Position numbers and translations under genes: made by a program
DNA from: a virus
DNA length: 64,000 nucleotides
Strand: one strand, 5' to 3'
IMG/VR virus record: IMGVR_UViG_3300045988_117466
Span: 64,001-128,000 of that record
Shown here: positions 19,532-62,074 of the stretch, piece by piece
Numbering within the stretch: position 1 is the stretch's first letter
Layout: each line of letters opens with the position of its first letter
Notes under the pieces: generated by a model
Database searches by the model: none
What the model was told of the DNA's origin: nothing
Seen by the model: only the letters and a program-made list of their open reading frames with translations

Positions 19532-19901
19532 CAAACTGTTTACTCAAGGGCAGGGAAATACCCTATTTTCACACTGGTAAAATATGTATTTGACAATCAC
19601 TAATGCAATATTCTATACTAATTATGTAACAAGAAATATGTATCATATCTCAAAGTAATAACACACATGGGGCTCACAATTCAGTGAGCCTTTTGTGTAT
19701 CTGAAATTAAAGGAGAAGAGAGGTTCATAAAGATACCTCTTTTTCGCAATTAACCTTGCAATATTTGGAAACATAAGTTATAATTAGAAACATCATGGAA
19801 TAATTAGTTCCCCAATTAATTATTTTCATACTAAAGGCATTCCTAGGAGGTAGGGATGCCTTTTCTCCATTTATGGGGTAACGATTCGTTCACCCATCAA
19901 A

Positions 19902-20708: not shown

Positions 20709-20743
20709 AATTCAATTTCTCCTTTTAATATAAACTTAATTTC

Positions 20744-20769
20744 AAAAGGGGTCGCATTTCACGACCCCC
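20744..20769 (-). terminator. Hairpin terminator between the Bro and Rha genes
   Basis: GGGGTCG-TGAAATG-CGACCCC followed by TTTT on the minus strand. Confidence 0.5.
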
Positions 20770-20793
20770 TATCAACAACAATCTCACCAAACT

Positions 20794-21600: not shown

Positions 21601-21670
21601 ATTAAATTCTCCTTTTCTTCAGAAAGGTGCACCAAATGGCATAGAACAGATGGTGCTGATGATTTGCTTA

Positions 21671-21759
21671 TCCTTCTATGCATATATGGCTAATTTACTA
21701 CCCCTTTAAAACACCAGGCTCTACCTAATGTTTTAAGACTCAATTAATGTGGTAAGTCT
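21671..21759 (-). promoter_or_regulatory. Conserved hairpin cassette, copy 1 (upstream of the Bro gene)
   Basis: TTACCACATTAATTGAG, a long imperfect hairpin, then GGGGTAGTAAATTAGCCATATATGCATAGAAGGATAAG. Two more copies lie at 48054-48144 and 48238-48330. Confidence 0.5.
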
Positions 21760-22233
21760 GCTAGAGCAGTATAAAAAGAGTATTAAATTATGTTAATGAG
21801 TATTTATAATATATCATATAAAATTCATTTCCCTATGTGCAAGCATGTTTCCATGCTGATAATTTTCTAGCGGCACATTCGCATACAGTTCTGATCATCC
21901 CTTTCTGATGTCACTCGTAAGGTGAGTTAACCAGATTCCCATTATGATCGATGGACGTTCCTCTAATATAGAGGCTTCGCTGCGGATTCTGTATAAATAT
22001 TGATCTTATTACTATATCTTAGGAATTACCCCTTGCCCTTAATACATCACTGTACTAAGTTAGTAATCAATATCGTTTAACAGTTCCCGTACATAAATTA
22101 TCAAAAAGTATTTCAGTTTCGGTTGTTTTCTAAGCAATCTCTTATTTGTATCACCATTTCGATACAAACTCGTTCTGTGTTACCACTAGATTGCTCTGGG
22201 CATTGTACATGAGGACAACTGATAATTTGCCCT

Positions 22234-25200: not shown

Positions 25201-26307
25201 ACCTTCTTCTGGCTGATAATTGCTTAGTATTTTACTGTAATACTCGGCTTTCTGTAATTCCTCATCGGTAAGAGTTTCACCTTTGGATTGTTTTTCCATC
25301 AGGTTCTTACTGCCGGCTTTTGCACCGTTGTATTGTTGAGGACTAATTGCTTGTCCTTCTTGAAATTTATATGGTTTACTAGAGTCAAACCCAGAAATCA
25401 AAATACCTTCTTGGGCTAAAATATCACTCCATTGTTTATTGAATTGGTTTTTAAGTTTATTGGTTACTCCTGTAGTCTTTTTGATATTTCTATCAGTGCT
25501 AGTCATAGCCTGAGTAAGAGCCTTATTAACCTGTTTAACAACATCCTCTTCGATCGGAGATAAAATATTTTTTAAGTCGATTCCCTGGGCTTGGAACAGG
25601 CTTTTATAACCTTCTGTACCTGCAAAATCAGTTTGTCCTGTTAGCAATTCTTTTATAAACTTTTGCCTAGAAGTAATAGTATTTCTTAACTCACCAGCCT
25701 GTTTGAGCATTTCATCGTTCTTACTCCAATCAGAATTTGACATTAAACCATGCAGTTCTTCAAAAGCTTTTCCAATATCTTCTTGAGCTAGCATTCCAGC
25801 CATTGCATATTCTTTAAAATCATTTAAAGAGATACCATTTTTAGAATTACCATGTAATTCGTTATATTGTGTTTTAGATTCGTTGTAAAAATCTTTATAT
25901 TTATCTTGCTTATAAGTCTTTTTTTGTACTTCGTGTACCTTAGAAGCAGCTCTTGTGGCAAGATCACTGTCCTCGTAGCTACGTTTAGAAACCTTGCTTA
26001 AATTGTCGTTCTTAATTTTTTCAAGATCATTGTAAGTAGTTTTAAGATTCTTTAACTTCTTTTCTGCATCGGCCAAATCTTTAGATTCATATACAAATTG
26101 AAAATTTGTTAATCCAGTTTTATCAATATAACTTCTGATGCTTTTAGCAACTTTATCCATAGAGGATTTATTGATATTAGCACCAATAGGTACTTGGACT
26201 TGTTTAAAACCATTTACTACTTCGCTTTTAGCTTTTTCTAAAGAGGCTTGATCAACGTCAACCCCCATAGAGGCAGTAAAAGAAATTACTTGTGTAGTTT
26301 CTGCCAT
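22234..26307 (-). CDS. Tape measure protein, exon 1
   Basis: ATG at 26307 with GGGGGTG SD. TP901-type TMP core (..KSTADWARLGYNT..LQAAGANYEQSVALTTVGNS..GAGLKTVSLRIRG..). The 15 codons after 22234 (RANYQLSSCTMPRAI-stop) are read as intronic. Confidence 0.8.
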
Positions 26308-45702: not shown

Positions 45703-45775
<73 letters not shown>

Positions 45776-45959
45776 ACAAAAAGAGTACATTGTAACTACC
45801 AACAATGTACTCAAATTTAGAAAAGAGGTATAAATTATGATTCCTACAAGAAATCTTAATAGCTTTGTAAATCTTTCTGAGGTATGAAACAACAATAGAA
45901 AAGCGCAATAATCAAAACTTCACAAGAAAGGAGATAATATGATTCCTCAGAAAGATTAA

Positions 45960-46031
45960 CAGGGATAACTGGATTTGAACCAGTGAATACAGCAGTCAAA
46001 GTGCTGTGCCTTACCGCTTGGCGATATCCCT
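45960..46031 (-). tRNA. tRNA-Gln (UUG)
   Basis: Acceptor AGGGATA/TATCCCT, anticodon loop CTTTGAC, T-loop TTCAAAT. Confidence 0.85.
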
Positions 46032-46644
46032 ATATGTATTTTAATTTTAAAGCAGGTCTTCACCTTACAGTCATTTGTGGAATAGTTTGTTCTGCAACAT
46101 AGTAGATAAGTCTGAGCTTTGAGGAGCGACCTCTAACTTCTTACCTAAGTCTAAAAGACCAGTTCTATGACATGATCAATACATGCAATGTCAACCCGCC
46201 ATTCAGAATTAAGTTTTATTGTTATATACTCTATTAGCATATATATTCATTTTGAATTTGAACTTACCCTTAACTGACTTGAGCGACATACCAGCGACTT
46301 TTCTTATACACTGTCTTTTGAACAGCTTCACATCAAACTACATTATTTGGCTTTTCCACCTTTTACGTACCTGCCAGAGTACGCATTGAAGTGGATTATT
46401 CTCCACAGGAGCGTCTATTGTTGTAGCGAAAAGTTCTGTGCGTTAACCAGACCAAAATGCTGCACAATATCCATTTGCTTGAGAGTTTCTCTCTTGTCCA
46501 TATCAAATCACTCCGACATAAAAAGAGACACAAAGAACGTATCCGTACAATGTATCTCTCCAATTCGACATATGTGCCTAGAATATTTCTCGGACTCATG
46601 GCATTGAGTTTTATAACCGAGTTGCTTATGTTTTAAAATACAAA
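46032..46644 (-). ncRNA. ORF-free 613-nt insert in the tRNA array; candidate large structured RNA (strand assumed)
   Basis: No credible ORF on either strand. Flanked directly by tRNA-Gln and tRNA-Trp. Several local hairpins (GTGGA..TCCAC, ACGTAC..GTACGT). Confidence 0.3.
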
Positions 46645-46716
46645 CACCCTAAGCTGGATTTGAACCAGCACGAACGGTTTTGGAGACCGTCATTCTACCA
46701 ACTAAATTATTAGGGC
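46645..46716 (-). tRNA. tRNA-Trp (CCA)
   Basis: Acceptor GCCCTAA/TTAGGGT, anticodon loop CTCCAAA, T-loop TTCAAAT. Confidence 0.85.
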
Positions 46717-46723
46717 GATATTA

Positions 46724-46797
46724 CTGACATGACAGGACTCGAACCTGCAACACCAACGTCCGTAGCGTTGTGCTCTGTCCAGTTGAGCTACATGTCA
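46724..46797 (-). tRNA. tRNA-Arg (ACG)
   Basis: Acceptor TGACATG/CATGTCA, anticodon loop CTACGGA, T-loop TTCGAGT. Confidence 0.85.
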
Positions 46798-46841
46798 TTA
46801 AAATTCGACCTCAATCCACATAGGATTTTGAGGTACTTTCG

Positions 46842-46925
46842 TCCCTGTTGAGGGAATCGAACCCACTCGTGACCGAAGCCATCTGATTTACAGTCAGATC
46901 CGCCTCCTTAGCGGGATAAACAGGG
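46842..46925 (-). tRNA. tRNA-Tyr (GUA), long variable arm
   Basis: Acceptor CCCTGTT/AACAGGG, anticodon loop CTGTAAA, variable arm TGGCTTCGGTCA. Confidence 0.8.
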
Positions 46926-46968
46926 ATATAAGCCCGTGAGCTCGAAAGACATCACAGGACAACCTAAA

Positions 46969-47054
46969 CGCTGCGACAAGGATTCGAACCTTGAGGTCAC
47001 TAGGACACAATAGTTTTCAAGACTACGCCGTTATAACCATTTCGGTACCGCAGC
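46969..47054 (-). tRNA. tRNA-Ser (UGA), long variable arm
   Basis: Acceptor GCTGCGG/TCGCAGC, anticodon loop CTTGAAA, T-loop TTCGAAT. Confidence 0.85.
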
Positions 47055-47059
47055 AAAAG

Positions 47060-47151
47060 CGTACAGAGTGGGCTACGACCCCACGTTACATGTATTCGCA
47101 TGTAAACCCAATTAGCAGTCGGGCGCCTTAAACCAACTCAGCCATCTGTAC
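47060..47151 (-). tRNA. tRNA-Ser (GCU), long variable arm, atypical T-loop
   Basis: Acceptor GTACAGA/TCTGTAC, anticodon loop CTGCTAA. T-loop is GTCGTAG rather than TTCRANN. Confidence 0.7.
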
Positions 47152-47335
47152 ATAATTTTTGTAGACCACTTGAAGTAAAGATTCACAAATCACATTGAAC
47201 CAAGTTATCGAAAGCTTCTACATGTCTTCGTCCGTGCGCATCAGACTAATCATTTTACGATGTGTGATTTATTTATACTGCCTTAGCAGTTGGTTCACCA
47301 AAATCTGTTCGCAAACAGTCTGGATCTCTCGTCAA

Positions 47336-47719
47336 TTACTTGACTAAGTATACTTTTCGGTATTTCTTCCCAAATTTTCTAACTTGGCTGTGAGAAGAGA
47401 AGTACATGTCGATGTGTTTTCCTTTTACGCCGCCTCCGACATCTTCGGCTACCAGTGTCTTACCACCAATTCTCACTTTGCTACCGAGTTTAATTTTTCT
47501 TCGATCGACTGAGATAGTTCTACCGGCTTTTGCTCTGCGTCCAGAAGCAGTACGATTTCCCCATCCACCAGAACAACTACGACAACCACAGTAAGCTGTG
47601 ATTTTGTATGTTCCTAAACATTTGACTTTTTTGCTCTTTGCTGGAACAGAAGAAGTAAGTCCTCTAACTGTGATCAACAAGGCCATTAACAGTGCGATCA
47701 TTGAAATTCTCTTTTTCAT
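47336..47719 (-). CDS. 3D-domain (MltA/RlpA-like barrel) exported cell-wall-active protein
   Basis: Signal/TM MKKRISMIALLMALLITV. ..TAYCGC..GNRTASGRRAKAGRTISVDRRKIKLGSKVRIGGKTLVAEDVGGGVKGKHIDMYF.. matches the 3D-domain pattern. Confidence 0.7.
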   Translation of the reverse strand: MKKRISMIALLMALLITVRGLTSSVPAKSKKVKCLGTYKITAYCGCRSCSGGWGNRTASGRRAKAGRTISVDRRKIKLGSKVRIGGKTLVAEDVGGGVKGKHIDMYFSSHSQVRKFGKKYRKVYLVK

Positions 47720-47924: not shown

Positions 47925-48047
47925 TTATTTACTCTTGGAATCTTTTTTGATCTGCTGGCGTTTCTTGAATGGAACTGGTTTCAATCCCCATGCAGTTCTT
48001 AAATCTTCCAGTGAGTTGTAATGTTCAGTTACTGTATTCCTTTTCAT
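47925..48047 (-). CDS. Hypothetical 40-aa basic peptide downstream of hairpin cassette copy 3
   Basis: ATG at 48047 follows GAAAGGAAGGATATAGACA. MKRNTVTEHYNSLEDLRTAWGLKPVPFKKRQQIKKDSKSK. Confidence 0.3.
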   Translation of the reverse strand: MKRNTVTEHYNSLEDLRTAWGLKPVPFKKRQQIKKDSKSK

Positions 48048-48053
48048 TGTCTA

Positions 48054-48144
48054 TATCCTTCCTTTCATATATCACTATTTTACCACCCCTTCAAAACACT
48101 AGGTTTTACCTGGGTTTCTGAGGGGTATTTAATGTGGTAATTCT
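48054..48144 (-). promoter_or_regulatory. Conserved hairpin cassette, copy 3
   Basis: TTACCACATTAAATAC, hairpin, GGGGTGGTAAAATAGTGATATATGAAAGGAAGGATA. Confidence 0.5.
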
Positions 48145-48237
48145 GCTCACCACTCAAAAATTTGTCTTAAAATACACTTTTTAGTATATATAATTAACTT
48201 TATTTTCTTTTTGAAAATCTGATCTTTTGAGCATTTC

Positions 48238-48330
48238 CTTATCCTTCCTTCCATATATCACTATTTTACCACCCCCTGAAAAACGTAGGTAGAACCTAGC
48301 GTTTTCAGGGTCAATTAATGTGGTAATTCT
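48238..48330 (-). promoter_or_regulatory. Conserved hairpin cassette, copy 2
   Basis: TTACCACATTAATTGAC, hairpin CCCTGAAAACGCTAGG/CCTACGTTTTTCAGGG, GGTGGTAAAATAGTGATATATGGAAGGAAGGATAAGG. Confidence 0.5.
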
Positions 48331-48341
48331 TTTTGCTGGCC

Positions 48342-49196
48342 TTATTTTTTGTCAGAATTATAGTATTTAGTATATCTATTTAACTGCATTTCATTCTTAC
48401 AAGAAATACAATACTGTCTAAGCCGTCCTTTACGATGCTTTTTCTTTTTTGAGATGTCTCTAAAAGGTTCTCCACAACAAGAGCATACAGAAATCTCAGG
48501 ATATCCAATAAAGTGAAGATATCTGTTCCCAAGATTCTTGAAGTCTGTAATTTCAAGAGCGACATCTCCTGAATCAGCAAGAATATCTACAGAGAAGTTT
48601 AAGCTATTAACTTTCTTGCTCATTGTTATACAATCGCTTCTGAACAGTCTGCCGATTATTTGGCATCTACGTTCTCTTGTACCTACTGTATTACCCAATG
48701 AGAATAAATCTTTGTAGTCTGTATTCACCCAGCTGTTATTTTGAGGATTCAGAGCATTATAATACTTGGCCAAACAAAGAGCAGTGAAGAGGATCTTTTG
48801 ATCTCTAAGATTCTCTAACCCATTTATAGTTTCCATTTCAGATTCATAGATCGGCAGTGAATCAATTTCTACAAGAGGATACTTTTTAGCTTTATGAATT
48901 ATCTCATCAATGCATGAATACCATTTGGCTTCTCTGTAGCTCTCACAGGACTCTTTTAAGAACTCATTGATAGTTTTATATACCTCTGCAGGTTCTAAGC
49001 CTTCCTCGTGGATATAATACTTTGCAAGCAGGGTAGCAGTATATGGGATACTGCCTTCCAGCTCTTTTGTTTCTAAAATTTTTTCTACCAGTTTTTTTTC
49101 ATTTAGTACGATATTAATAACAATCAGCCTCCTCAAACATAGATGATTCAATTTGTTTAATAGTTTCAATGACGAAAGAATCTCCGTCATATTCAA
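48342..49196 (-). CDS. Hypothetical protein with C-terminal zinc ribbon (start uncertain)
   Basis: CSCCGEPF..YCISCKNE motif. Overlaps the RNAP stop. The only SD (GAGGAGG) is followed by ATT/ATC codons rather than ATG. Confidence 0.4.
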   Translation of the reverse strand: MNMTEILSSLKLLNKLNHLCLRRLIVINIVLNEKKLVEKILETKELEGSIPYTATLLAKYYIHEEGLEPAEVYKTINEFLKESCESYREAKWYSCIDEIIHKAKKYPLVEIDSLPIYESEMETINGLENLRDQKILFTALCLAKYYNALNPQNNSWVNTDYKDLFSLGNTVGTRERRCQIIGRLFRSDCITMSKKVNSLNFSVDILADSGDVALEITDFKNLGNRYLHFIGYPEISVCSCCGEPFRDISKKKKHRKGRLRQYCISCKNEMQLNRYTKYYNSDKK

Positions 49197-50256
49197 AATC
49201 TCCTGATTCAGCTCTTACAGGATAAGAGATCTGGTGATAGTTTCTCTCTAAGAGTCTTTGGACAAGAATGTCTCCAAACATGTCCCATACAAACTGCTTA
49301 CTCTTACCATTGGTGTAGCAGAGATCAAGAAGAATGTCACAAGCTTTCTCAGGATCAGGAACAGCAGTAGCAACAGCTTCTCTGAACAACATGACTCGAT
49401 TATTGATAATGTCTGTTACATTTAGACCAAAACCACCCTTACCGTTGATCAGAGCATTTAAGGTTTTCATTTTCTTTGAATATTCACTGTACAGCTTCTT
49501 AAGAGCATAATAATCATTCTTGTTGTACTCATGATCTCTTTTGAGAATGGAGTAATCAAAATCTGTTTGTGTGTTCAACTTCTTTAAGTATCCATCAAAC
49601 TCATCCTCAAAGAGCTTACAGATTCGATTCATTACACAAGGCCCTGTACCTACAGGCAAGAACTTATAGTAGTGGTCTAAGAATTCCGCTTCATCCTCTG
49701 TGATAGGTTCTGTATCAGCTTTCTTGAGCAATTCATCAATCGTACACCCAAACCAGATGATGCATTTGTCATTTGAAGCTTTCACATAATTTGTATAATC
49801 CTTTCTCAGATGAGAGTAGATGTAGATCATGAAGTATGGCTTCTTGTCAGCTACGATTCTCTGGTTGAATTCTTTCCGCTTACGATCCTTTGGTGAGTCT
49901 TCAGGATGGATGTTATTTTCCTTGCGATTGTACCAGTAAGATGGTATTGGTTTACACACGATGCCTTTTAGACGATCAATACTTCCTTGTTGATATAGCT
50001 GACCACAAATGATTCTGTAATCTAGTTCTTTAAACTCATCACTGTCAGGGGAGTAATGAGACTGTACTTCAAACTGAGAAGTGATGATGTTTGTTGTGAA
50101 GCCAATTTCGTCTCCAAAGGCATCCTTGTAAGCTTTTAGGATGTCTTTCTTTTTGGGAACAATCTTATTAGCCTTACGCTGCACACAAATGATTGATGGA
50201 AGAGGACGATTGTTCTCAACAAGTATTCTGTTGTTAGTTGTGAAGAAGAGGTCTCC
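49114..50256 (-). CDS. Two-barrel (YonO/QDE-1-like) RNA polymerase, exon 2
   Basis: The frame opens GDLFFTTNNRILVEN.. right after G 50257. No SD. Contains SIDRLKG. Confidence 0.65.
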   Translation of the reverse strand, partial: GDLFFTTNNRILVENNRPLPSIICVQRKANKIVPKKKDILKAYKDAFGDEIGFTTNIITSQFEVQSHYSPDSDEFKELDYRIICGQLYQQGSIDRLKGIVCKPIPSYWYNRKENNIHPEDSPKDRKRKEFNQRIVADKKPYFMIYIYSHLRKDYTNYVKASNDKCIIWFGCTIDELLKKADTEPITEDEAEFLDHYYKFLPVGTGPCVMNRICKLFEDEFDGYLKKLNTQTDFDYSILKRDHEYNKNDYYALKKLYSEYSKKMKTLNALINGKGGFGLNVTDIINNRVMLFREAVATAVPDPEKACDILLDLCYTNGKSKQFVWDMFGDILVQRLLERNYHQISYPVRAESGDFEYDGDSFVIETIKQIESSMFEEADCY

Positions 50257-50599
50257 CGATGTACCCTCGGTTTCCCGATATTTATGGAGAAAGGGGACTA
50301 GACTATATCATTACACAGCATAGGTCTTACACTGTGATGCTCGGCACTTCCCTTGGGGAGTTTCACCCTTTTGGTACTCTACTTGCTACCGATACCGTAT
50401 TCCTCGAATATCAGTGCTTTGGTTAGTCGTTTAACTTTCAATTTCTTGCTTAGCACAGGATTACCACCGACTCTACTCGCTGAGGCTTCCCTGTTAGCAC
50501 ATGTGTTAACTTCCATTTCCTGAAGCTACTGTATGTCACATGTACACCTTACATTTGTAAGTTCACCGAGTTTTACTTCGACAAATGGTATGCTCAGAT
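50257..50599 (-). mobile_element. ORF-less group I intron R (343 nt) in the RNA polymerase gene
   Basis: 7-bp P1 CTTCGAT|/GTCGAAG (50606-50600 / 50582-50576) with U.G at the splice site, terminal G at 50257. Core-like AATCCTGTGCTAAGC at 50448-50462. Splicing restores DFDGD in frame. Confidence 0.85.
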
Positions 50600-52330
50600 A
50601 TCGAAGTCGCAGCCGTTAAGTGATTCACATGTATTGTCCCAATTGTTGATCACACAAATGGATGGGAGATACTGGAACCAATATGAAAGCTGCTCATTGT
50701 TCTTCACTTTAAGATTGACGATATTGTAATGGCTTGTCATTGGAGCTCTGAAACAAGCTACTTCATCAACCTGTCTATCAACCCAATGCTTGTGATACAT
50801 TTCTCCTGCTTTAAGTAATCCTGTGACTTCAAGCCCAAACATAGACTGCATGAGAGCATATGGATCACCAGCAACGATTGAATAATTACCTTTCACTTTG
50901 ATGCGTCCAATCTTAGCATCTTGGATTCGTTTCTTAATGAGCGAATGAATCTTAGATCGAATGAAAGGATCTTTGATCATCTCAGGTTCAGCTATGAGTG
51001 CCTGGATGTATGTAAAAGCATCTGACTGTAAGATGTTCTTCTCAGTCATATTCTTACCTCGTAGGAAGAGCAGAGTCTTTCTGTAATCCATTCCAAGAAT
51101 GTCTTTGATCTCTTTTATGGTTGGCTCACAAAGCTCTCTTATTTGGGCGTCTGTGAGGTGATAGCTCTGTAAGAACTGATAGTTAAGATTTCTTTCAGTA
51201 TCACATTCTTGTTCAGCTGTCTTGGCAAGAGCAAAGTGATAATCATACTTCTCAATGTTCTCTAAGTAGTCTTCCATGGAATCATATGCGTCCCAGAGTT
51301 TAAACATAGATGTTGTAAGTATCACCTGAGCGTCTCTAACGTCCCTAGGATGGCCCCAAGCATCAATAATGGTATAAGTGTTGGCTACGTTCTCTGCAAA
51401 GGCTCTAAAGTCCATACAGTGAAGCATACCTTTACAGAATGGCCAACCTCTCATGTTGCCAGATGGAAGAGGAGTATCATAATCTCCATTCAGTTCACCA
51501 TTCCATTGCTTTGCAAGTTCTGGAAGAACTAATCCTTCTCCATCAGATCCATTGTGCACAAACTCTTGGTTATCAAGAAGAGTTACTTCTGGTTCATCTG
51601 AGTTTGTATCATCCACATAAAGAGCTTGTCCCTTAAAGACCGTCTCACAATCTTGTACAACAATCACTCCTGATGGTGGAGTAACAACTGTAGAAGAAGA
51701 GCAGAAGAGTGCTTTGTATGCTCCAAGCTTGTGAGTTATGATCGGAACCTCTTTGTTCCTTCCTGCATCTACTTTCTCACAGAGAGTATCGTACACGTTG
51801 TCACTGACAAAGATTACAACACTGTTCTTTAATCCTCCTGTAGTTCCTAAGAAGAGATTGTAGTGAAGATCGTTTACAATGAATCCATGCTTGCTACAGT
51901 AGTCATAATCTTTCTTTGTGTCGAAGACCACTGTGAGGTAGTCTGTTTGGAATCGACATTTGTACAAGTCATTGTAGAGTAGTGAGATAAGTTCTTTGCT
52001 TCCTCTGTTGGCTGAAAGCTCTTTGATCTTCTTTCGGATTCTTTTTGCTCTTATGTCTGAATCATAGTCATGGATTAATGAGTCGATTGTTCTTAATGCT
52101 TCAGAGCTTGAAAGAGTAATAATGTCATCTCCATTCTCCCTCGCTTCATTGAGTGGTAGAGAAAGTTTCCACTTCGCCTTTCTTAACCGGCTGCTGTGTA
52201 GTTTGTAAATATATTTCTGACTCGTCTTTTGCTTAGAAATAATGATCACTCCTTTTTTGATTTTTGTGTATGTTTTTACAGTAAATTGGAAAAATATGGA
52301 AAGCGAGTATATTTTCATATAAATACTCAT
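50600..52330 (-). CDS. Two-barrel (YonO/QDE-1-like) RNA polymerase, exon 1 (start uncertain)
   Basis: Ends ..ACFRAPMTSHYNIVNLKV..NWDNTCESLNGCDFD|. The only SD (AGGAG 52253-52249) is followed by ATC/ATT/ATT at 52246-52238. The upstream ATGs lack an SD. Confidence 0.6.
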
Positions 52331-53585: not shown

Positions 53586-54120
53586 TTTTTGACCTCCTTT
53601 GTGTTGTTTGCTTTTGTTAATTCAATGAAAAAGTGCATTTGTCTGAGCAATGACACTTTTCTTTCGATGAATTCACATTACCATAGATGTAGAGTAAAAT
53701 CAATAGTTTTTTGAAGAAAAAATAAAATTGTGTGAGTAATGACACTTTTTATTTCATTTAAGTACGTTTAAGGAGGCTTAGACTAGGATTTTTGTGTCAA
53801 GTGTTTTTTGAAAATTTCTTAAAATAATGTTTTCTTTGGCTGTTTTACTGGGCTTGTTCTGGATTTTTCTTTAACTCATTGTACTTATATAGGTAGAAAT
53901 ATGGCTGTTTTATGCGATTGTACAAAAATAAAATAAATTAATTTTTTATACGCTAAAGTATTGACTTTTGAAAAATCAAGTGTTTTTTGAAAGAAATTTA
54001 AAAAAATTTTTACCGTGTGGATTTCTCAGAGAGGGTGTTTGCATTTATATAAGAAGAGCCTGGTTTTTGAAAAAATTTCAGAAAAGTGGGTTTAAAGCAG
54101 AACAGGTGTTCTATATTTTA

Positions 54121-54270
54121 GAGTGTGTTAAGAGGTGCGTTTCTGGGGAAAGTTTTTATGAGGGGGGAGGGGTGTATGTGTGGTGTTCGGAAAGAAATGT
54201 GGAGGATGTTTTTAGAGGGTTTTGAGGGGTTAAGTGGCGTAGATGTGGGGTGGAGAAACGTCTGGCTGAA
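54121..54270 (+). other. G/T-rich, nearly C-free island with six G3-G6 tracts
   Basis: ..CTGGGGAAAG..ATGAGGGGGGAGGGGTG..AGAGGGTTTTGAGGGGTT..GATGTGGGGTGGAG.. in an otherwise AT-rich genome. Confidence 0.6.
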
Positions 54271-54419
54271 CTTGTGGTATAGAATTACCAGCTATACGAA
54301 TATCAGCAAAACTGCGATTTAAAAATAGTTTTAAGTAGCCCCCTAAACACTTTTAAAAGTCTGTAAATAACTATTTACTTGCGTTTTTGATCAGAAATAG
54401 ATAGTCAAAAAAGCACGTA

Positions 54420-54438
54420 TTTATGCGGGTTTGAGACC
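54420..54438 (+). repeat. Direct repeat TTTATGCGGGTTTGAGACC (partner at 52444-52463)
   Basis: See partner. A shorter TTTTATGCG lies near 53906. Confidence 0.5.
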
Positions 54439-54946
54439 GTTTGAAAAGATTTTTAAAAATATTTTTTTTAGGGTATTGCAAAATTTTGGTGGGCATGGTC
54501 TTATACAGTTGTTCCAAGGGACAAGGAACTAAAACAAAAGTTCAAAAATTTAAAAAGAAAGAAGATGATAAAAGCCCAGTGCGTGGGCAGAACGCACGAA
54601 CAAACGAAAAATTGAAAATCTTTCCTAAAGTAGGCGTTCCCTACCACTAAGAAAGTAGTCATAGGTACAGCGACTATAAACCAGTACCCGCACTTTGACA
54701 AAATAATACTCTTTTCAAGTCTTTGGCGGTTAGTCCGTCAATCACATGGTTAGTCCATGCCCCAAAAGACCTGAATCGTTAGGTATCGACATACGCAAAA
54801 ACTCTACTTTGCTACAAGTGGACTTTGCCAAAAAATCGGTTTTGATTCTATATCGGGAAAATACAGTAGCAGGAAATTTGCCCTTTGACGTTGGAACGTA
54901 TTACGTCCAACTCATAAACAATTATTTTAGTTTGTTGAGTCTTGAA

Positions 54947-55034
54947 CTCAATTAGCCAACAGGTGGCAATCCTACGCAATAACTCTATCCTTTTTTAGAG
55001 TTTGGGTTAATCGGTTCGACTCCGATAGTTGAGA
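54947..55034 (+). ncRNA. tRNA-like element 1 (acceptor + D-arm + T-arm, no standard anticodon arm)
   Basis: CTCAATT/AGTTGAG acceptor, GCCA-ACAGG-TGGC, ATCGG-TTCGACT-CCGAT. The middle is a 7-bp hairpin with an 8-nt loop plus a 15-nt spacer. Confidence 0.4.
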
Positions 55035-55092
55035 TTTAACCAATAACAATGTTTTTAGCTGACACACTTAGTCAGCAGATAGGAGAATTATT

Positions 55093-55968
55093 ATGTTAAA
55101 TATCAAAACTTACAACAAAACAACAGCTTCTTTTGACAGCACAATCAACATGGTTGAACCTAAGAACCTTATCAAAGAAGAGTCAGACAACTTTGCTACA
55201 GCTGTACAGGTACAGGCTATGCACTGGACTTTTTGCAACGCTCGCAACAAGTGTGATGATATTCGTAAAGAATACCCACAGTTTGATACTTTAAAAGATG
55301 ATGATATTTCTAAGTTATCAGCAGAAGAAGTATCTGCTTACAGTAAATATCTTGAGAATAAAGCTGTTGTCACAGCTTATGAAAACTATAGCTTCACAGA
55401 AGAAGAACAGGAACTACTCAAAAGACACGACAAACTGCCAACCATGGTAAGATTTTACGCAAGCTTTCTGTCTAGTGACGAGGGTATTTGTATGAATGGA
55501 TTCGACAGCATTTACAAGAAATGCCGTAGTTTATTCAATGATTACATTCTTACAGACACAACAGACGCTATGAATTCTGACGAGAGCTTCAAAGCTCTGC
55601 GTAAAGAAATTGTTACATGGTATAACAATCTGTTCAAACTCGCAGAAGACAACGAGTATCTTACAGCACGTGGTTCATCTATCAGCAAAGTGTCAGCTTC
55701 TTTTGTAAAGCTCTTAGTATCTGACTTTAAAGTCCCTGCTAAGCTCAATAGAAAAACTGGAAAAGCTGAGATTGGTTCATACAGACAGATGAAAACTTGC
55801 AAGAAAATTTTCCGTACATACATTCTTGCAAAAGTACAGAATCTGTCTTTAGACGAAGCAAAGAAAGCTATTCAGGACGCAATCAGCAAAGAAACAAACA
55901 AAGTGGAATCAGAGTCTAAAAAAGACGAAGTAGTTAAAGATGCAGACACAACAGAAGAAACAAAATAG
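55093..55968 (+). CDS. Hypothetical early protein
   Basis: 291-aa ORF with AGGAG SD. Confidence 0.5.
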   Translation: MLNIKTYNKTTASFDSTINMVEPKNLIKEESDNFATAVQVQAMHWTFCNARNKCDDIRKEYPQFDTLKDDDISKLSAEEVSAYSKYLENKAVVTAYENYSFTEEEQELLKRHDKLPTMVRFYASFLSSDEGICMNGFDSIYKKCRSLFNDYILTDTTDAMNSDESFKALRKEIVTWYNNLFKLAEDNEYLTARGSSISKVSASFVKLLVSDFKVPAKLNRKTGKAEIGSYRQMKTCKKIFRTYILAKVQNLSLDEAKKAIQDAISKETNKVESESKKDEVVKDADTTEETK

Positions 55969-56898: not shown

Positions 56899-57204
56899 AT
56901 GAAAACGAAAAGAGATAACACGTCAACAATACTAGGAATGGTAGCAATGGTGTTTTTGAGTATAGTTCTAATATTAACATTAGTATTTCCATATGTAAGA
57001 AATAAGACAGCTAAGGTAAACACTCGCACAATCAATGGAACTTACAACAACGGAACTATTGTAACTACAGACAACAACGTCTGGAAAGTAACCAACTACA
57101 ATGGAATCAACACAAAAGGAAATCATAAGGTATCTGTCAAGTTTGATACAAAAGGAACTGACAGCGTACTTGATGACGAAATTGTAGAAATTAAAGAGAA
57201 ATAG
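56899..57204 (+). CDS. Single-pass membrane protein
   Basis: GAAAGGAAA box upstream. TM segment ILGMVAMVFLSIVLILTLVF. Confidence 0.5.
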   Translation: MKTKRDNTSTILGMVAMVFLSIVLILTLVFPYVRNKTAKVNTRTINGTYNNGTIVTTDNNVWKVTNYNGINTKGNHKVSVKFDTKGTDSVLDDEIVEIKEK

Positions 57205-57220
57205 AAAGGAAATCAAAGCC

Positions 57221-57406
57221 ATGATGAGCCAAAGATGTAAACAAGAACACTATAAACATATGAAAGGAAGAAAGCGTAAACATAAATACTATATTGTGGA
57301 TACTGGGTGTGAAGCTGGATTCTTTAGGAAGTATAAAGATGCACGCAGATATGCAAGAAAAAACAGAATAGGAATACTTGTACCTAAAATATACAAAGAC
57401 AGATAA
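57221..57406 (+). CDS. Small highly basic protein
   Basis: GAAAGGAAA box upstream. 61 aa, Lys/Arg-rich. Confidence 0.45.
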   Translation: MMSQRCKQEHYKHMKGRKRKHKYYIVDTGCEAGFFRKYKDARRYARKNRIGILVPKIYKDR

Positions 57407-57423
57407 GAAAGGAAACTAAAACC

Positions 57424-58146
57424 ATGACAAAACAGGAAATAGAAATTATCAAAGCAAAAGCAATCACAACTCTTGCAACTTCACTAAATCGAGTTGAACT
57501 AAAAGATAGCCACAAAACAGTTACAAGATGTGAACATAAATGGAAATTTAAATGTAAATCAGATACAGAACACTTCTATGTAGAAAGTATCTTTGATGCT
57601 GTAGATTGGCTGTATGAAGATTTAATTGCGGATGACGAAGAAGAGAAATGGAAACTCAGATTCACAACAAGGGTAGAGCCAAAGATTGTAAGAGATATTT
57701 TGGAGAGTCTAAGTGAATACAGTGAGATTCTTACAGATATGTCAGACACGGCTTGGGGTCTATATCGAGAAAATGGAAATGAAATCCATCTCGGAGAAAA
57801 TAGTGCATATATAGCTGGAGCAGATTTGTTTGACCAGATGCGAGAGAACCTAGAAAATGACTTAAAAGAACAGAGCACTGAAAAGAAAGATAGAATTCAG
57901 GAATCACAGGCAAAAAGCGATATAGGACAATCAGTGCTTACGCAGACTATAGAAGAAGCGAAAAGAGAAGGGGAATATGATGCACTAAGAGAGGTGAATG
58001 GTTTTTGTGCTGTAAAGTTGGCATTCGAAACCAGTTCAGATGCTCAATTAGCATACTTGTATGTGCAAAAACATATTGAAGAGCTAAAAACAAAAAATAG
58101 AAGACAATCAATAAGTCAATACATAGAAAGGAAACTAAGACCATGA
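57424..58146 (+). CDS. Hypothetical acidic early protein
   Basis: GAAAGGAAA box upstream. Shares the IEEAKRE motif with the next gene. Confidence 0.5.
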   Translation: MTKQEIEIIKAKAITTLATSLNRVELKDSHKTVTRCEHKWKFKCKSDTEHFYVESIFDAVDWLYEDLIADDEEEKWKLRFTTRVEPKIVRDILESLSEYSEILTDMSDTAWGLYRENGNEIHLGENSAYIAGADLFDQMRENLENDLKEQSTEKKDRIQESQAKSDIGQSVLTQTIEEAKREGEYDALREVNGFCAVKLAFETSSDAQLAYLYVQKHIEELKTKNRRQSISQYIERKLRP

Positions 58147-58694
58147 GAACAAAAAGAGAATTAATGACAGAAATTTTAGAAACAGCTGTAATCGAATCTG
58201 TAAAATCAGATTGTGAAGTTGTCCATTACGATGTAGAAGTACACGGGGAGATGCACAGATTACAAGTAATTACAGGTCAATTTTTTGTTGAGTTTCATCA
58301 TCTGGAAGATGGAGAGTATGACTACAATTGTCCACACTTAGTCTATACTTTCGATCCATGGGAAATCGAAGAAGCGTTGGATACTTTCTTTATGATGGAT
58401 GGAGAAACAGGAGAACTTCATGTTGACGAAAGCAAAATCGAACTTGGTATTGACTCTGATTTTACACCAGAAGCGAAACCAGAAATCACACGAGAAGATA
58501 TCGAGGAAGCGAAAAGAGAAGCACAGATTGAGATGCTTCATCGTATTAAAACCTATAGCCTTTCTGTAAGTTTTGAAAACGCAAAAAACCTCAACAAAAC
58601 AGGGAACTGCTTTTATGATGGTAAAATAGAAGCATATAAAGACATTAATGAAACGTGTGAAGCTTTGCTATACCGATTAGGAGAAGAAGACTAA
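58143..58694 (+). CDS. Hypothetical acidic early protein
   Basis: GAAAGGAAA box upstream, 4-nt overlap with the upstream gene. IEEAKREAQIEML. Confidence 0.5.
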   Translation: MRTKRELMTEILETAVIESVKSDCEVVHYDVEVHGEMHRLQVITGQFFVEFHHLEDGEYDYNCPHLVYTFDPWEIEEALDTFFMMDGETGELHVDESKIELGIDSDFTPEAKPEITREDIEEAKREAQIEMLHRIKTYSLSVSFENAKNLNKTGNCFYDGKIEAYKDINETCEALLYRLGEED

Positions 58695-58770
58695 AGCAAA
58701 TCAATACATAGAGGGGTAGTGATTTGATATATATCTAGTACAAACTGTATATATTTGTAGCTAGAAAATC

Positions 58771-58810
58771 AGCCTTAGATAGCCAGTAAAGGAAATCTAA
58801 GGCTCTTTTT
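58771..58810 (+). terminator. Intrinsic terminator
   Basis: AGCCTTAGAT..ATCTAAGGCT followed by CTTTTT. Confidence 0.6.
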
Positions 58811-58862
58811 GTATCTATAAATATATTAATTCTTGTGGATGCACAAGAGAAAGGAAGAGCTT

Positions 58863-59135
58863 ATGGGATTAACAAAAAAAGAAATCTGCGAACGCTCAGA
58901 AACCATTGCATATTACAGTGGTTTATGTGGCGTAGAAGTGAAACAAATTACCTATGGAATAGAAGACTACATGTACTGTGAGTCTGGAGCTTGGGGTGGT
59001 GGCAAGAGCTATCACAAACTAAAAATCCAGACAGACAACAAAGGAAATATGTTCGTGAAATTACACGGATATAGACTATTCTTAGATGAATTCATTCGCA
59101 CAGGAAAGGAACAGACAGAGCTATGGGAACAATAA
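58863..59135 (+). CDS. Hypothetical protein
   Basis: ATG at 58863 after GAAAGGAAG. Confidence 0.45.
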   Translation: MGLTKKEICERSETIAYYSGLCGVEVKQITYGIEDYMYCESGAWGGGKSYHKLKIQTDNKGNMFVKLHGYRLFLDEFIRTGKEQTELWEQ

Positions 59136-59410
59136 CATCTTTAACATTGTTTGAACAACAATGCATGGAACAAAAGACATTCAAACTGAAAACACTAAAA
59201 GATTTTGGTCATGCAACTTACAAAGGATTTACACTTCGCAATGGATACAGATATGGAGTCACAGAGGAAGACGGAATCCATGTTGCGACTTCAAACTGGC
59301 AGCAAGGGAACTTCATTTATATGTACTTCTACAATGAATTAACAAGCCAGTGGGAAGGATTATGGATTGACTTAGAAGACGTAGAGATTGTGGAAGAGAA
59401 AGGAAATTAA
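59123..59410 (+). CDS. Hypothetical protein
   Basis: GAAAGGAAC box upstream. 95 aa. Confidence 0.45.
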   Translation: MGTITSLTLFEQQCMEQKTFKLKTLKDFGHATYKGFTLRNGYRYGVTEEDGIHVATSNWQQGNFIYMYFYNELTSQWEGLWIDLEDVEIVEEKGN

Positions 59411-59411
59411 G

Positions 59412-59819
59412 ATGGAAATTATACAATCTGTAATGTATATGGTAGCTGTGTGGTTTGGAATGTGGATGGAAAGATTTTTACTCAAAAAGCAAGGTAAAAC
59501 CTATGAAAAAGTAAAAGAAGAAAATCTTGAATTAAAAGATATGTTATATTCTATTGAGGAAAATAGAAACTATTATAAAATGTTAAGTGATAATTATTAT
59601 GATCTAAATACAAGATTAAAAAGACTAAATTATATACTAGAAGAGGAAGTTAAGATACTAAAAACTCAACCAGAGGCAACAACACAGCACATAAACCCAG
59701 CAGACCAAGAAATCATAGAAGCTGTCAAGTATGCTATGAAAATGTCTCATCCAGACAACAATGGAAACGCAGAAGACTTTATGAAGTTCAGAAAGCTTTA
59801 TAAAGAAATAACAGAATAG
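59412..59819 (+). CDS. Membrane-anchored protein with a J-domain-like C-terminus
   Basis: TM segment MEIIQSVMYMVAVWFGMW. C-terminus ..IIEAVKYAMKMSHPDNNGNAEDFMKFRKLYKEI carries the HPD tripeptide in the helix II/III context. Confidence 0.45.
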   Translation: MEIIQSVMYMVAVWFGMWMERFLLKKQGKTYEKVKEENLELKDMLYSIEENRNYYKMLSDNYYDLNTRLKRLNYILEEEVKILKTQPEATTQHINPADQEIIEAVKYAMKMSHPDNNGNAEDFMKFRKLYKEITE

Positions 59820-59831
59820 GAAGTGAAACAT

Positions 59832-60122
59832 ATGTGGAAAATTGGAGATAGAGTAATTGTTGTTGAGGCTCCAGAAGAAAAGAATATTTGGAGATTAAAT
59901 ATTTCAGCAGGCGACAAGGGAACCATTATAGCCAAAAGAGATGGTCAGTATTTAATCCAATTTGATAAGGATATTGGTGGGCATGATGGAGCTTTTGAAA
60001 AACCACTAGGTAAAGATGGTCATTGTTGGTGGTTGTATGAAGAACATTCTTACCTTGTAAGTTGTGCCTTAGAGCTTAAGTGTAAGTGGATTCCAAAGAA
60101 AAGAAACAACAACTTCTACTAA
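59832..60122 (+). CDS. Small paralog family member A (GDRV type), tail KKRNNNFY
   Basis: MWKIGDRVIVVEAPEE..GTIIAKRDGQYLIQFD.. Ends IPKKRNNNFY. Confidence 0.55.
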   Translation: MWKIGDRVIVVEAPEEKNIWRLNISAGDKGTIIAKRDGQYLIQFDKDIGGHDGAFEKPLGKDGHCWWLYEEHSYLVSCALELKCKWIPKKRNNNFY

Positions 60123-60140
60123 AAGAAAGGCAAGGTAAAC

Positions 60141-60440
60141 ATGAGAGAACTTAAACTTGAAGATTGTAAGGTTGGGATGACTCTTAAGCTAAAGGAAGAT
60201 TGTCCTTTTAGAGAGTATTGGGAAATAGATCCTAAGGAACCGGTAAAGTGCATTGTCCTAGAGGTGATCGGGAGTCAAATAGATAGCATTTTTGTAGATA
60301 TCTACTATAAAAATGGGCGAAAATGTGTCCCGAGGAATTGGTATTTCTATACAGAAGATTCAATAATAGAGGCTAACGGTTATGAACTAATCTCAAAGAA
60401 CTTAGAGTATCCGAACAAGCGAAAGAACAATTACTATTGA
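60141..60440 (+). CDS. Small paralog family member B (EDC.VG type), tail KRKNNYY
   Basis: ..LEDCKVGMTLKLKEDCPF.. Ends PNKRKNNYY. Confidence 0.55.
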   Translation: MRELKLEDCKVGMTLKLKEDCPFREYWEIDPKEPVKCIVLEVIGSQIDSIFVDIYYKNGRKCVPRNWYFYTEDSIIEANGYELISKNLEYPNKRKNNYY

Positions 60441-60451
60441 GAGGTGCAAAT

Positions 60452-60757
60452 ATGCAAAAAGAAAAGGGAATTCGATTCGAAGATTGCCATGTTGGAGATG
60501 TATTTAGGTTAAAAACAAGGTGTCCTTTTGTGTACTATTACCTTATATCTGAGGGGATTGCTGTAGCAATAGAAGATAAAGTTACTGCAAGAGTAGTTCA
60601 TAAAGAAAGAGATACTCTTGATGTAATGGTATATGTAAATGGGAAAAGATGTGCAACAGATTGGGATTGTTGGCTTGCAAGCAGTTCGATCTATCGTGAA
60701 CATAGTTTTTACCTTAATGTCGATTCAAAGATTAATCGAAAGAACAACTATTATTAG
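60452..60757 (+). CDS. Small paralog family member C (EDC.VG type), tail NRKNNYY
   Basis: ..FEDCHVGDVFRLKTRCPF.. Ends KINRKNNYY. Confidence 0.55.
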   Translation: MQKEKGIRFEDCHVGDVFRLKTRCPFVYYYLISEGIAVAIEDKVTARVVHKERDTLDVMVYVNGKRCATDWDCWLASSSIYREHSFYLNVDSKINRKNNYY

Positions 60758-60782
60758 ATATAAGAGAAAGGAAAATAAGGCT

Positions 60783-61298
60783 ATGGGATATTTTAAAGTA
60801 GGAGATAGAGTAGAAGTAATAGGCATCTATGGGCAACTTCCTGCCTATTATGAAGAACAAATAGAGATAGGTTCAAAGGGAACTATAATTACTGTAGATT
60901 GGTATGGTATTGACGTAATATTTGACGATCTTAAACCTTATAAAGAGCCATCAAAGAACTCTTTGAATTTTGCTCCAATGTGGGATGATGATAAGGATAG
61001 TGAAGAATTTATTGATTCTGATATCCAAGGGACTGTTATTTTGGGCAAGGAAAACGCACCAAAAGCAGAGGTTCAAGTGAAATCTATTAAAATCAAAGAT
61101 CGGACTGTTATAAGAGACAATAACGGAGACCGCTTAGATGTAGAAATTATTACAGATCAGGGAAAGATTTTGGGAAGCACTTGTAGATGCTACAAAGGTT
61201 GCCACAATACTTGGGACATAACCAATTTAATAGGCAGAAAATTTCAAGGTATGAATGGTTTACTTCGTTATTTAATTGTGGAACAGAAAGGAAAATAA
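60783..61298 (+). CDS. Small paralog family member D (GDRV type), longer and without the tail
   Basis: MGYFKVGDRVEVIGIYG..GTIITVDWYGIDVIFD.. Ends EQKGK. Confidence 0.5.
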   Translation: MGYFKVGDRVEVIGIYGQLPAYYEEQIEIGSKGTIITVDWYGIDVIFDDLKPYKEPSKNSLNFAPMWDDDKDSEEFIDSDIQGTVILGKENAPKAEVQVKSIKIKDRTVIRDNNGDRLDVEIITDQGKILGSTCRCYKGCHNTWDITNLIGRKFQGMNGLLRYLIVEQKGK

Positions 61299-61300
61299 AA

Positions 61301-61600
61301 GTGAAAGATAGAGAAATTCGGACAGGAGATAGAGTAGAAGTTATTAAAAGTCATAACGAGGATTCATGTATTGATCACTATGCTCCTGTAGGGCTTAAAG
61401 GAACTGTAGTTTATGCAGAACCGAGACATTTGACAAAGCAAATAGCTGTTGAGTTTGATAAGTCTTTTAAAGAAGGACACGGTTGTAGTGGAAAAGTAAG
61501 AGGTAAGCGAGGGCAGTGGTATGAATATGATCCACATTCCAATATATATTGGAAAAATTGCTTAAAAATCTTATCCAAAAAGAAAAACAACTATTACTAA
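61301..61600 (+). CDS. Small paralog family member E (GDRV type), tail KKKNNYY
   Basis: GTG at 61301 after GAAAGGAAA. ..IRTGDRVEVIKSH..GTVVYAEP.. Ends LSKKKNNYY. Confidence 0.5.
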   Translation: MKDREIRTGDRVEVIKSHNEDSCIDHYAPVGLKGTVVYAEPRHLTKQIAVEFDKSFKEGHGCSGKVRGKRGQWYEYDPHSNIYWKNCLKILSKKKNNYY

Positions 61601-61647
61601 AGGTATTTCAAAATCAGTGGAGTGATTTTTGTTAATACATGAAGAAA

Positions 61648-61674
61648 GGCGGGATTTATTCCCGTCTTTTTTTA
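61648..61674 (+). terminator. Intrinsic terminator
   Basis: GGCGGGA-TTTA-TTCCCGTC followed by TTTTTTT. Confidence 0.6.
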
Positions 61675-61693
61675 AAACAGAAAGGAAATTAAG

Positions 61694-62074
61694 ATGAGTA
61701 AATTTAGATATTTAAATGAAGAAGAAACAAAAGTGTTATTACAGGTAACAGAATGGTTAGATAATCATTTCTTTAATCCAGAAAATAAATTCGATGAAGA
61801 ATATTTTGAGAAATACATGAGAGCAATCATTGACAACACAAGGGAAATGTACGAAGCGGTATACATCTGTGTGAACACAAAACCTGTAACTGTAATGATT
61901 TATGACTATGTACTTGACATTATTATTACCGATGCACGAGTTGACAAAGAAGCTAGAGAGATTGTAGAGATTGCTTTTACAACTTGGTTAATAAACATGA
62001 CAGATAAACCATTTGAAAAGATTTTTGAATGGATGATTAGGCTCGCAATCCAATCACGTAAAGCTGATGAGTAA
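61694..62074 (+). CDS. Hypothetical protein
   Basis: GAAAGGAAA box upstream. 126 aa. Confidence 0.45.
   Translation: MSKFRYLNEEETKVLLQVTEWLDNHFFNPENKFDEEYFEKYMRAIIDNTREMYEAVYICVNTKPVTVMIYDYVLDIIITDARVDKEAREIVEIAFTTWLINMTDKPFEKIFEWMIRLAIQSRKADE

Follow-up and report, generated by a model that had tools for sequence, protein, structure and literature searches.

A repeated hairpin-and-box cassette beside a YonO-type RNA polymerase gene as a candidate phage promoter module

The cassette copies and their setting

We analysed 64,000 nucleotides (nt) of DNA from an SPbeta-like gut phage, positions 64,001 to 128,000 of IMG/VR record IMGVR_UViG_3300045988_117466 (this whole stretch is called the window here, and coordinates count from its first nucleotide). 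Every gene from about 53.6 kb down to 2 kb of the window lies on the minus strand, and this block holds a repeated unit of about 95 nt, here called the cassette, that joins a conserved box, a variable hairpin of fixed length and a second conserved box. An initial annotation, made from the letters of the sequence, had reported three minus-strand copies (48330-48238, 48144-48054 and 21759-21671), and all three were recovered when the sequence was reread and compared with shuffled versions. Two of them stand directly behind the genes for a YonO-type RNA polymerase and the protein that we call its partner.

48234-48330, minus strand: cassette A, with 5′ box 48330-48313 (AGAATTACCACATTAATT), hairpin 48310-48274 and 3′ box 48273-48234 (GGTGGTAAAATAGTGATATATGGAAGGAAGGATAAGGAA)
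48048-48144, minus strand: cassette B, with 5′ box 48144-48127, hairpin 48124-48088 and 3′ box 48087-48048
21663-21759, minus strand: cassette C, with 5′ box 21759-21742, hairpin 21739-21703 and 3′ box 21702-21663
49114-52330, minus strand: gene for a YonO-type single-subunit RNA polymerase, split into open reading frames (ORFs) of 578 amino acids (50594-52330) and 356 amino acids (49114-50184)
48342-49190, minus strand: YonO partner protein of about 260-280 amino acids with a C-terminal CxxC...CxxC

The 5′ box reads AGA(A/C)TTACCACATTAA(T/A)T in all copies and leads into an imperfect hairpin of about 37 nt, after which the 3′ box reads GGGGT(G/A)GTAAA(A/T)TAG..ATATATG.A..GAAGGATA, again in all copies. 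The pattern TTACCACATTAA-N25-55-GGGGTRGTAAA has three matches in the window against 0.00 expected from 100 shuffles (for the 3′ box by itself, three against 0.17), and the cassettes form the top direct-repeat family of the window (D1). A and B lie within a 186-nt tandem duplication (D1/D10) whose start falls within the 3′ end of the partner gene; the stop codon of that gene falls 11 nt before cassette A, and its final 45 nt or so belong to the duplicated unit. Downstream, the 3′ box of A runs into the ATG of a 17-codon ORF (48234-48181), cassette B, 186 nt downstream of A, ends at the ATG of a 40-codon ORF, and cassette C is followed by a leader of about 85 nt and the Bro gene. These three ORFs are present as first annotated. 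The features downstream of the cassettes are:

47925-48047, minus strand: 40-amino-acid ORF served by cassette B, conserved at the protein level in relatives L077, L219 and L218
47336-47719, minus strand: 3D-domain protein, among the first genes downstream of the tandem cassettes (45703-47719)
45703-47151, minus strand: seven transfer RNAs (tRNAs), downstream of the 3D-domain gene
46034-46645, minus strand: full-length ROOL RNA (303.7 bits), embedded in the tRNA array
20794-21600, minus strand: Bro-N/KilAC gene (Bro), downstream of cassette C
19902-20708, minus strand: Rha gene, after Bro

The polymerase is a homologue of YonO: in tblastn it shares 41% identity with Clostridium phage c-st, 39% with Enterocloster phages and 28% with yonO of SPBc2. 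An insert of about 410 nt (50185-50593) parts its halves directly after ...CDFD, in the catalytic-motif region, and contains a weak group I intron match (Intron_gpI, 50278-50569, 26.8 bits, E 1e-4). In relative L079 an HNH_3 endonuclease ORF occupies the same gap (1138-1611), while the gene is intact, at about 915 amino acids, in most distant phages.

The partner protein shares 30-32% identity (E 1e-33 to 1e-39) with the protein that follows YonO in distant phages. A homologue of about 260 amino acids with an invariant C-terminal CxxC...CxxC overlaps the end of the YonO gene in about 60 distant loci, nearly all of the distant Clostridia YonO phages examined; SPbeta has no such gene. The protein belongs to no Pfam family and its PHROG match is unannotated. 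Its AlphaFold model is confident (predicted local distance difference test score, pLDDT, 84.7), and a comparison with the PDB returned no significant fold match, the weak ones being mostly winged-helix DNA-binding domains (best E 0.085). We regard it as a candidate cofactor or specificity factor of YonO. With the split YonO homologue and this partner as the genes immediately upstream, the tandem pair does sit downstream of a phage RNA polymerase operon, as had been proposed.

Cassette C occupies the gap that separates the tape-measure gene from the Bro/Rha insert. It had been described as residing inside an intron, a description that we could not substantiate: no group I or group II intron signature flanks the Bro/Rha insert, with no intron-family match in 20500-23000 at E<=10 or in 19300-20100 at E<=1. 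The 2.6-kb Bro/Rha segment separates a 1373-amino-acid tape-measure ORF (22186-26307, minus strand), whose match to a 2625-position tape-measure profile is confined to the middle of that profile, from a 1331-amino-acid ORF with a TTG start (15539-19534, minus strand) that has no PHROG match.

Conservation of the hairpin and boxes among relatives

The cassette pattern was found in about 20 closely related viral and metagenome contigs (up to about 130-270 kb), at two syntenic loci only, in one orientation and in at most three copies per contig. None of the deposited phages resembles the window at the DNA level, and neither a pattern scan nor a hidden Markov model (HMM) found the cassette in 185,579 reference genomes; the HMM rejected as chance the pattern matches in L004, L017 and L026 together with all 30 matches in genomes. 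The exact cassette sequence occurs in one phage lineage only. Through the flanking proteins we reached sister lineages whose cassettes have diverged: L077 and L219 carry two in tandem, L217 three and L218 two. Behind the two of L218 come the small ORF known from the window, then a 3D-domain protein, Bro, and the tRNAs and ROOL. In this 41%-identity relative the ROOL and tRNA block also lies downstream of the cassettes (7102-7658).

Two of the related contigs show how the unit has been rearranged. L018 (519-607) has a single chimeric cassette, with the hairpin of A and the downstream part of B; it has lost one cassette by recombination between A and B, and the 17-codon ORF is therefore dispensable. 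In L024 (551-1518), cassette C and its leader stand directly before Rha without Bro, so Bro is an insertion or deletion. Because C can precede a different gene and a cassette can be lost, the cassette behaves as a portable expression unit. Such variation in copy number (L018, and the two or three tandem copies of relatives), together with the inverted termini TTACCAC/GTGGTAA, is also what might be seen in a miniature repeat that is mobile or recombinogenic and lacks a regulatory role. We consider this highly improbable, as the element keeps a constant orientation at the same two syntenic sites in more than 20 contigs, no target-site duplications were seen, nothing similar occurs in the reference genomes and selection acts on boxes, spacing and base pairing. 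A dispersed repeat resembling a miniature inverted-repeat transposable element was rejected on the grounds of its single orientation and two syntenic loci in all related contigs.

The hairpins of the three window copies fold as first described (RNAfold -23 to -25 kcal/mol, z about -2.1 to -2.5), with stems of 16-17 bp and loops of 3-5 nt. We assessed covariation in a close set of 17 cassette variants and in a wide set of 12 cassette types from five phage lineages, a comparison that the initial annotation had suggested. The inner hairpin shows four covarying pairs in the close set. In the wide set 13 of its 17 pairs have changed on both sides and pairing holds in 77% of cells, which agrees with the earlier remark that the inner stem varies in sequence and stays paired. 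The covariation score of 0.280 compares with 0.151 in shuffles, none of 500 of which reached it, and with at most 0.162 in controls slid along the alignment. The hairpin, covarying across five lineages, is under selection.

The pairing of TTACCAC with GTGGTAA outside this stem, which had been thought to be kept, fared differently. None of its seven pairs has changed on both sides, copy C pairs at only six of the seven, three pairs in the close set and five in the wide set show mismatches only, and pairing in the wide set holds in 64% of cells. We therefore rejected an outer helix (P1), from which only a CAC...GTG core recurs, in a register that shifts between lineages. What is constant is length. 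The alignment from CCACA to TATATG is internally gapless in the 12 types, with 66 nt between the boxes free of insertions and deletions, the AAAA and UUUU around the variable inner stem of about 8 bp are invariant, and the apex is conserved as yAGr-loop-ACCTA, its apical AG...CT being conserved in sequence. Asymmetry between G.U and A.C was tried as a signal of the strand, and nothing clear emerged in the close set; the two counts are equal (15 versus 16).

A structure of this kind could be a transcribed RNA element that is processed (by RNase III, for instance), stabilises the transcript or acts as a translational leader before selected genes, in which CCACAWUUAA and the 3′ boxes would be recognition sequences for a protein or the ribosome. 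Covariation of the hairpin suits this reading, as does its slightly better folding on the sense strand (mean -13.8 versus -11.9 kcal/mol); every copy points the same way as the genes, and B could be transcribed from A. Four of the five types from the window and the closest sister contig, L077 (A, B, A′ and B′) end 6-10 nt before a start codon and carry a Shine-Dalgarno (SD)-like GAAGGA at the cassette end; this adjacency was scored in the window and L077 types only. Moreover, a sigma-70-like site (TTAACA-17-TATACT) ends 9 nt before cassette C and would place that cassette at the 5′ end of a messenger RNA, although the site does not exceed shuffle expectation and A and B have none.

Other results weigh against an RNA element. 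Rfam 15 covariance models gave no match over the cassettes at the gathering score or at E<=10, and none over the equivalent elements of 16 related loci; across the window and these loci, gathering and permissive thresholds returned tRNAs, ROOL and chance matches only. Pairing is not conserved anywhere beyond the hairpin, with no compensatory pairs in the outer helix, and the L218 hairpins are marginal (-8 to -14 kcal/mol). An RNA hairpin should also tolerate changes in length, of which the 12 types show none. On balance we find the RNA reading somewhat unlikely. The ATG inside ATATATG was considered separately as the start of a leader peptide or leaderless gene and rejected, because it opens ORFs of one to six codons or non-conserved ones only and is TTG in several distant phages.

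Beyond the hairpin, the most conserved parts of the 12 types are CCACAWTTAA and (W)WGTGA followed, after 0-10 T-rich nt, by TATATATG-R-A. The 3′ box had been read as containing an extended -10 promoter element, TGATATATG, which is a poor match. A better one, TGGTAAAAT (TGn plus five of six positions of TATAAT), lies 8 nt upstream of it in window A and B and in L077 B′, with conserved A/T bases 5-9 nt downstream. With the hairpin as an ordinary terminator, this could make the cassette a host sigma-A unit of terminator, promoter and ribosome-binding site of the "moron" type, unrelated to YonO, and the position of cassette C before Bro and Rha, typical moron genes, would suit such a unit. However, TGGTAAAAT is missing from C, L077 A′, L217 and L218, all of which retain the box itself: the TG is absent from C (TAGTAAATT) and L077 A′ (GGGTAAAAT), and the -10-like TAAAAT of the window becomes TGTGAT in L217 and GAAACT in L218 with the rest of the box kept. 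Distant phages have GATGAG at this position. A sigma-70/sigma-A promoter scan found no match inside any cassette and no -35 element, and the box is too compact for sigma-70 spacing. We therefore hold a sigma-A cassette to be quite improbable.

The corresponding slot in other YonO phages and related systems

A profile of YonO C-terminal halves recovered 67 distant loci at 40-45% identity (elements L092-L158). Almost all have the same order: an intact YonO gene of about 915 amino acids, the partner of about 260 amino acids, a gap of 100-350 nt, and a protein of about 70 amino acids or YonJ. Within the gap, some 60-110 nt after the partner gene (for example L132 6830-6906 and L104 6815-6902), we found TGTTGGAAAAAAT, a strong hairpin and then TTTGATGAG.TGCTT.TATGAAGGGAAAT. 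The hairpin usually takes the form CCCC..AAA..inner stem..TTT..GGGG, is sometimes wholly different in sequence, and covaries at 10 of 15 pairs. The 3′ box occurs once per locus of about 11 kb, always on the sense strand at the same position, and its TGATG and a later TG are invariant. Its blocks leave 8 nt between TTGATG and the AT-rich segment, a spacing unfit for a sigma-70 promoter. In roughly half of the loci the purine-rich GAAGGGAAAT supplies the 5′ arm of a stem-loop that comes after it, which is what a transcript beginning at this point should show; a second stem-loop often follows the element, before the conserved protein of about 70 amino acids (..RTMKQKSKRHHYYCEE..). Nearly all distant YonO phages examined have a hairpin-plus-box element in the slot after the YonO partner gene.

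No Rfam family covers the distant element. A hammerhead ribozyme was considered for the TTTGATGAG...GAA box and discarded: the base before UGAUGA is U, G or A and not C (there is no C3), the 11 nt up to GAA cannot form a stem II, and no Rfam hammerhead match was obtained.

The window cassettes share with this element their position, directly 3′ of the partner gene on the sense strand, and their layout of 5′ box, hairpin of about 37 nt and 3′ box of about 35 nt ending in TG and purines. In both groups a hairpin, with an A-tract and a U-tract in all window types and in most of the distant hairpins, precedes a box of 30-35 nt that ends in T-A-T-G and purines, at near-constant length. The boxes themselves differ in sequence (TGTTGGAAAAAAT and TTTGATGAG.TGCTT.TATGAAGGG in the distant phages, CCACATTAA and GGTAAAATAGTGATATATGGAAGG in the window). 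Furthermore, the distant element is single whereas the window lineages have two or three tandem copies, and it is followed by a leader of 60-100 nt and a second stem-loop rather than by an immediate start codon. When only the 14-nt core of the distant box is used, the cassettes rank 4th and 12th of 128,000 positions, a result confounded by their SD-like sequence. In the plus-strand genes of the window (57181-61700), repeat families D2, D4 and D6 represent a uniform ribosome-binding region, AGAAAGGAAA-N6-9-ATG, before many genes; this consensus inflates the position weight matrix (PWM) scores of motifs that contain GAAGGA.

In the Bacillus prophage SPbeta, YonO reads the late genes as a single operon, with transcription beginning upstream of yonK (Forrest et al., 2017, PMC5467207). 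The promoter was left undefined in that study, with the start mapped to position 2225998 of the 168 genome (PMC5467207), and we found no later definition of a YonO promoter in the papers searched. Besides its polymerase family, the window resembles SPbeta in gene order. After the tRNA/ROOL block come an HU-like gene, a YonJ-like exonuclease gene and then structural genes, which mirrors yonO, yonN (HU), non-coding region, yonK and yonJ; both SPbeta promoter and cassettes thus occupy a slot after yonO, near an HU-like gene and before yonK/yonJ and structural genes, with a long co-directional late block downstream. The other end of the minus-strand block in the window is a divergent intergenic region toward the plus-strand genes (53600-55100), with direct repeats D13 (53797/53976) and D16 (53627/53716) and several sigma-70-like sites, which is probably an early promoter and operator region.

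The published primer-extension oligonucleotides bracket 8931-9123 of our SPbeta locus L032 (SPBc2), and the start can be placed to this bracket only. Conservation among SPBc2, Goe14 and SPbetaL1 begins inside it at a hairpin of 5-6 bp, just upstream of a conserved block, with stems of ACTGC/GCAGT or CTACA/TGTAG; in B. altitudinis an AGGAG/CTCCT stem takes this place and is followed, after 2-3 nt, by the conserved AGTCGGATAAT. As AGTCGGATAAT is one strand of a long conserved helix, the SPbeta RNA must start at or before it. The SPbeta promoter region and the cassettes have no detectable sequence similarity, and the short SPbeta hairpin, with a structured non-coding RNA of about 1 kb between start and yonK, is unlike the arrangement in the window. 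A likeness between the window 3′ box and SPbeta GGATAATAGTCATTTATGAGGG was downgraded once the latter proved to be a strand of the conserved helix.

The 1.7-kb gap between yonN and yonK in the SPbeta group (L032 8650-10100; in Goe14, L214 1503-1612 and 2809-2874) contains the skipping-rope RNA, annotated in Goe14, as well as a DUF3800-VIII RNA (47.5 bits in SPBc2) and the long conserved helix. This gap corresponds to the stretch of "unannotated non-coding RNA" located downstream of where YonO starts. In a Geobacillus prophage (L222 9680-9790), two tandem units of a short hairpin and TAATAAATG(G/A) lie upstream of the yonK/yonJ block, a further example of hairpin-and-box units in tandem in a YonO prophage.

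Comparable junctions are known from unrelated polymerases. Promoters of the T7 group are compact (about 25-35 bp), conserved, specific to their polymerase and repeated in the genome, and lie near RNase III sites or terminators. As is proposed for the cassette, their AT-rich segment leads into a purine-rich stretch that is transcribed first, and stem-loops stand beside the promoters. The T7-like single-subunit enzymes are, however, unrelated to the two-barrel YonO, and the promoter-like box of the cassette always comes with a long fixed-length hairpin and a conserved box far upstream. The reduced two-barrel RNA polymerase of the cytoplasmic linear plasmids of yeasts works from UCS/INR promoters, in which a short upstream conserved sequence (UCS) lies 20-40 nt before the start codon, and RNA stem-loops with a U-tract form 3′ ends (PMC6211774). 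At gene junctions this places a compact promoter behind a stem-loop, as is proposed for the cassette, but the plasmid motif, ATNTGA, is unrelated and precedes every gene, and the system is eukaryotic, cytoplasmic and related to that of poxviruses, requiring a helicase and a capping enzyme for initiation.

The closest parallel for the hairpin itself is phage N4, whose virion RNA polymerase, a T7-like enzyme acting with the host single-stranded DNA-binding protein, uses promoters with stems of 5-7 bp and 3-nt loops. N4 and the cassette have in common an inverted repeat immediately upstream of the start (a presumed one in the cassette), conserved flanking or loop bases, and a phage polymerase that works without sigma; the cassette stems are 16-17 bp, lie about 20 nt from the presumed start, and would serve a polymerase of another fold.

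By analogy, the hairpin, extruded from supercoiled DNA or formed in a single strand, might together with the CAC...GTG boxes be read by YonO, its winged-helix or zinc-ribbon partner, or both. The indel-free hairpin length and spacing in the 12 types would be expected of such a promoter, and so would the conserved apex and inverted CAC/GTG flanks in every lineage and the retention of the hairpin in every duplicated copy. The three different SPbeta-group stems 2-3 nt before the conserved block, the two hairpin-and-TAATAAATG units of the Geobacillus prophage in the same region, and the winged-helix tendency of the partner's weak fold matches also lend it some support. On the other hand, one distant subgroup has the box without the hairpin, the stems far exceed those of N4, and the partner's fold matches are not significant. 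We judge a hairpin-read promoter unlikely. Were it true, promoters of the N4 hairpin type would have arisen here independently, and a structured YonO promoter with the partner as specificity factor would give this polymerase family its first promoter grammar, in which box sequences co-vary with the polymerase lineage.

A candidate boundary between early and late transcription

Given the tandem pair's place in the slot of the YonO-phage elements and the YonO-dependent late start of SPbeta, a promoter for the phage polymerase is the best reading of the cassette. Specifically, we propose, at a probability of about 0.45, that the cassette is a module at the boundary of early and late transcription in which a terminator-like hairpin is followed by a compact YonO-specific promoter or initiation box. 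The initial annotation had suggested a phage-specific promoter, operator or structured leader, possibly recognized by the phage polymerase or by a regulator. Its argument from position behind the polymerase operon is supported; the outer helix, the intron context and TGATATATG are not.

Under this proposal, host RNA polymerase would transcribe the early operon of YonO and its zinc-ribbon partner. The hairpin, comprising an A-tract, a variable inner stem-loop of about 8 bp, UUUU and flanking complementarity, would end or insulate the early transcript. The 3′ box (WWGTGA..TATATATG, then purine-rich) directly after it would be a compact YonO promoter or initiation region, from which YonO would start a long co-directional late transcript through the small ORFs, tRNAs and ROOL, HU, YonJ and the structural genes. 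We infer all three of the central points, namely that YonO starts at the cassette, that the hairpin terminates, and that initiation lies at or just after the invariant T-G. The 5′ box, CCACAWTTAA, may be a site for the partner protein. Tandem duplication of the unit would have given A and B, and the third copy before the Bro/Rha insert would have Bro and Rha expressed with the late set.

Several observations weigh against this proposal. An intrinsic terminator scan did not report the cassette hairpins, despite the terminator-like arrangement of AAAA, inner stem and UUUU in all 12 types; several distant hairpins have no U run, and one distant subgroup carries the box alone. A sigma-70-like site also lies just before cassette C. 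Across groups, an nhmmer and PWM search with the full distant box did not place the window cassettes among its top matches, and the distant covariance model (R1) gave 15.2 bits (E 3.4) for copy B and 16.3 bits (E 1.9) for L077, below chance matches. Since these models fail across groups, the window and distant elements are equivalent in position and layout, with homology not demonstrated. The resemblance of SPbeta to the window 3′ box is probably coincidental, because the SPbeta block is the 5′ strand of a conserved RNA helix. Finally, a plain terminator followed by a promoter does not explain the indel-free 66-nt spacing, the conserved apex or the strongly conserved 5′ box, features that leave room for a structured promoter that YonO or its partner would read.

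As kinds of element, promoters of phage polymerases and junctions of terminator and promoter are already known. What this analysis adds is a candidate promoter module for the YonO family whose hairpin is obligatory and fixed in length and whose partner gene is conserved. YonO is, to our knowledge, the only characterised single-chain relative of multisubunit RNA polymerases from a bacterial virus. The cassette and its equivalents in dozens of other YonO phages provide concrete, mutable candidate promoter sequences that make the choice of start site by YonO directly testable, and the cassette may serve in annotation as a marker of the early/late boundary in a large group of Firmicutes phages. 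If the hairpin is part of recognition, it would also bear on how minimal two-barrel polymerases open DNA without factors resembling sigma or TFB.

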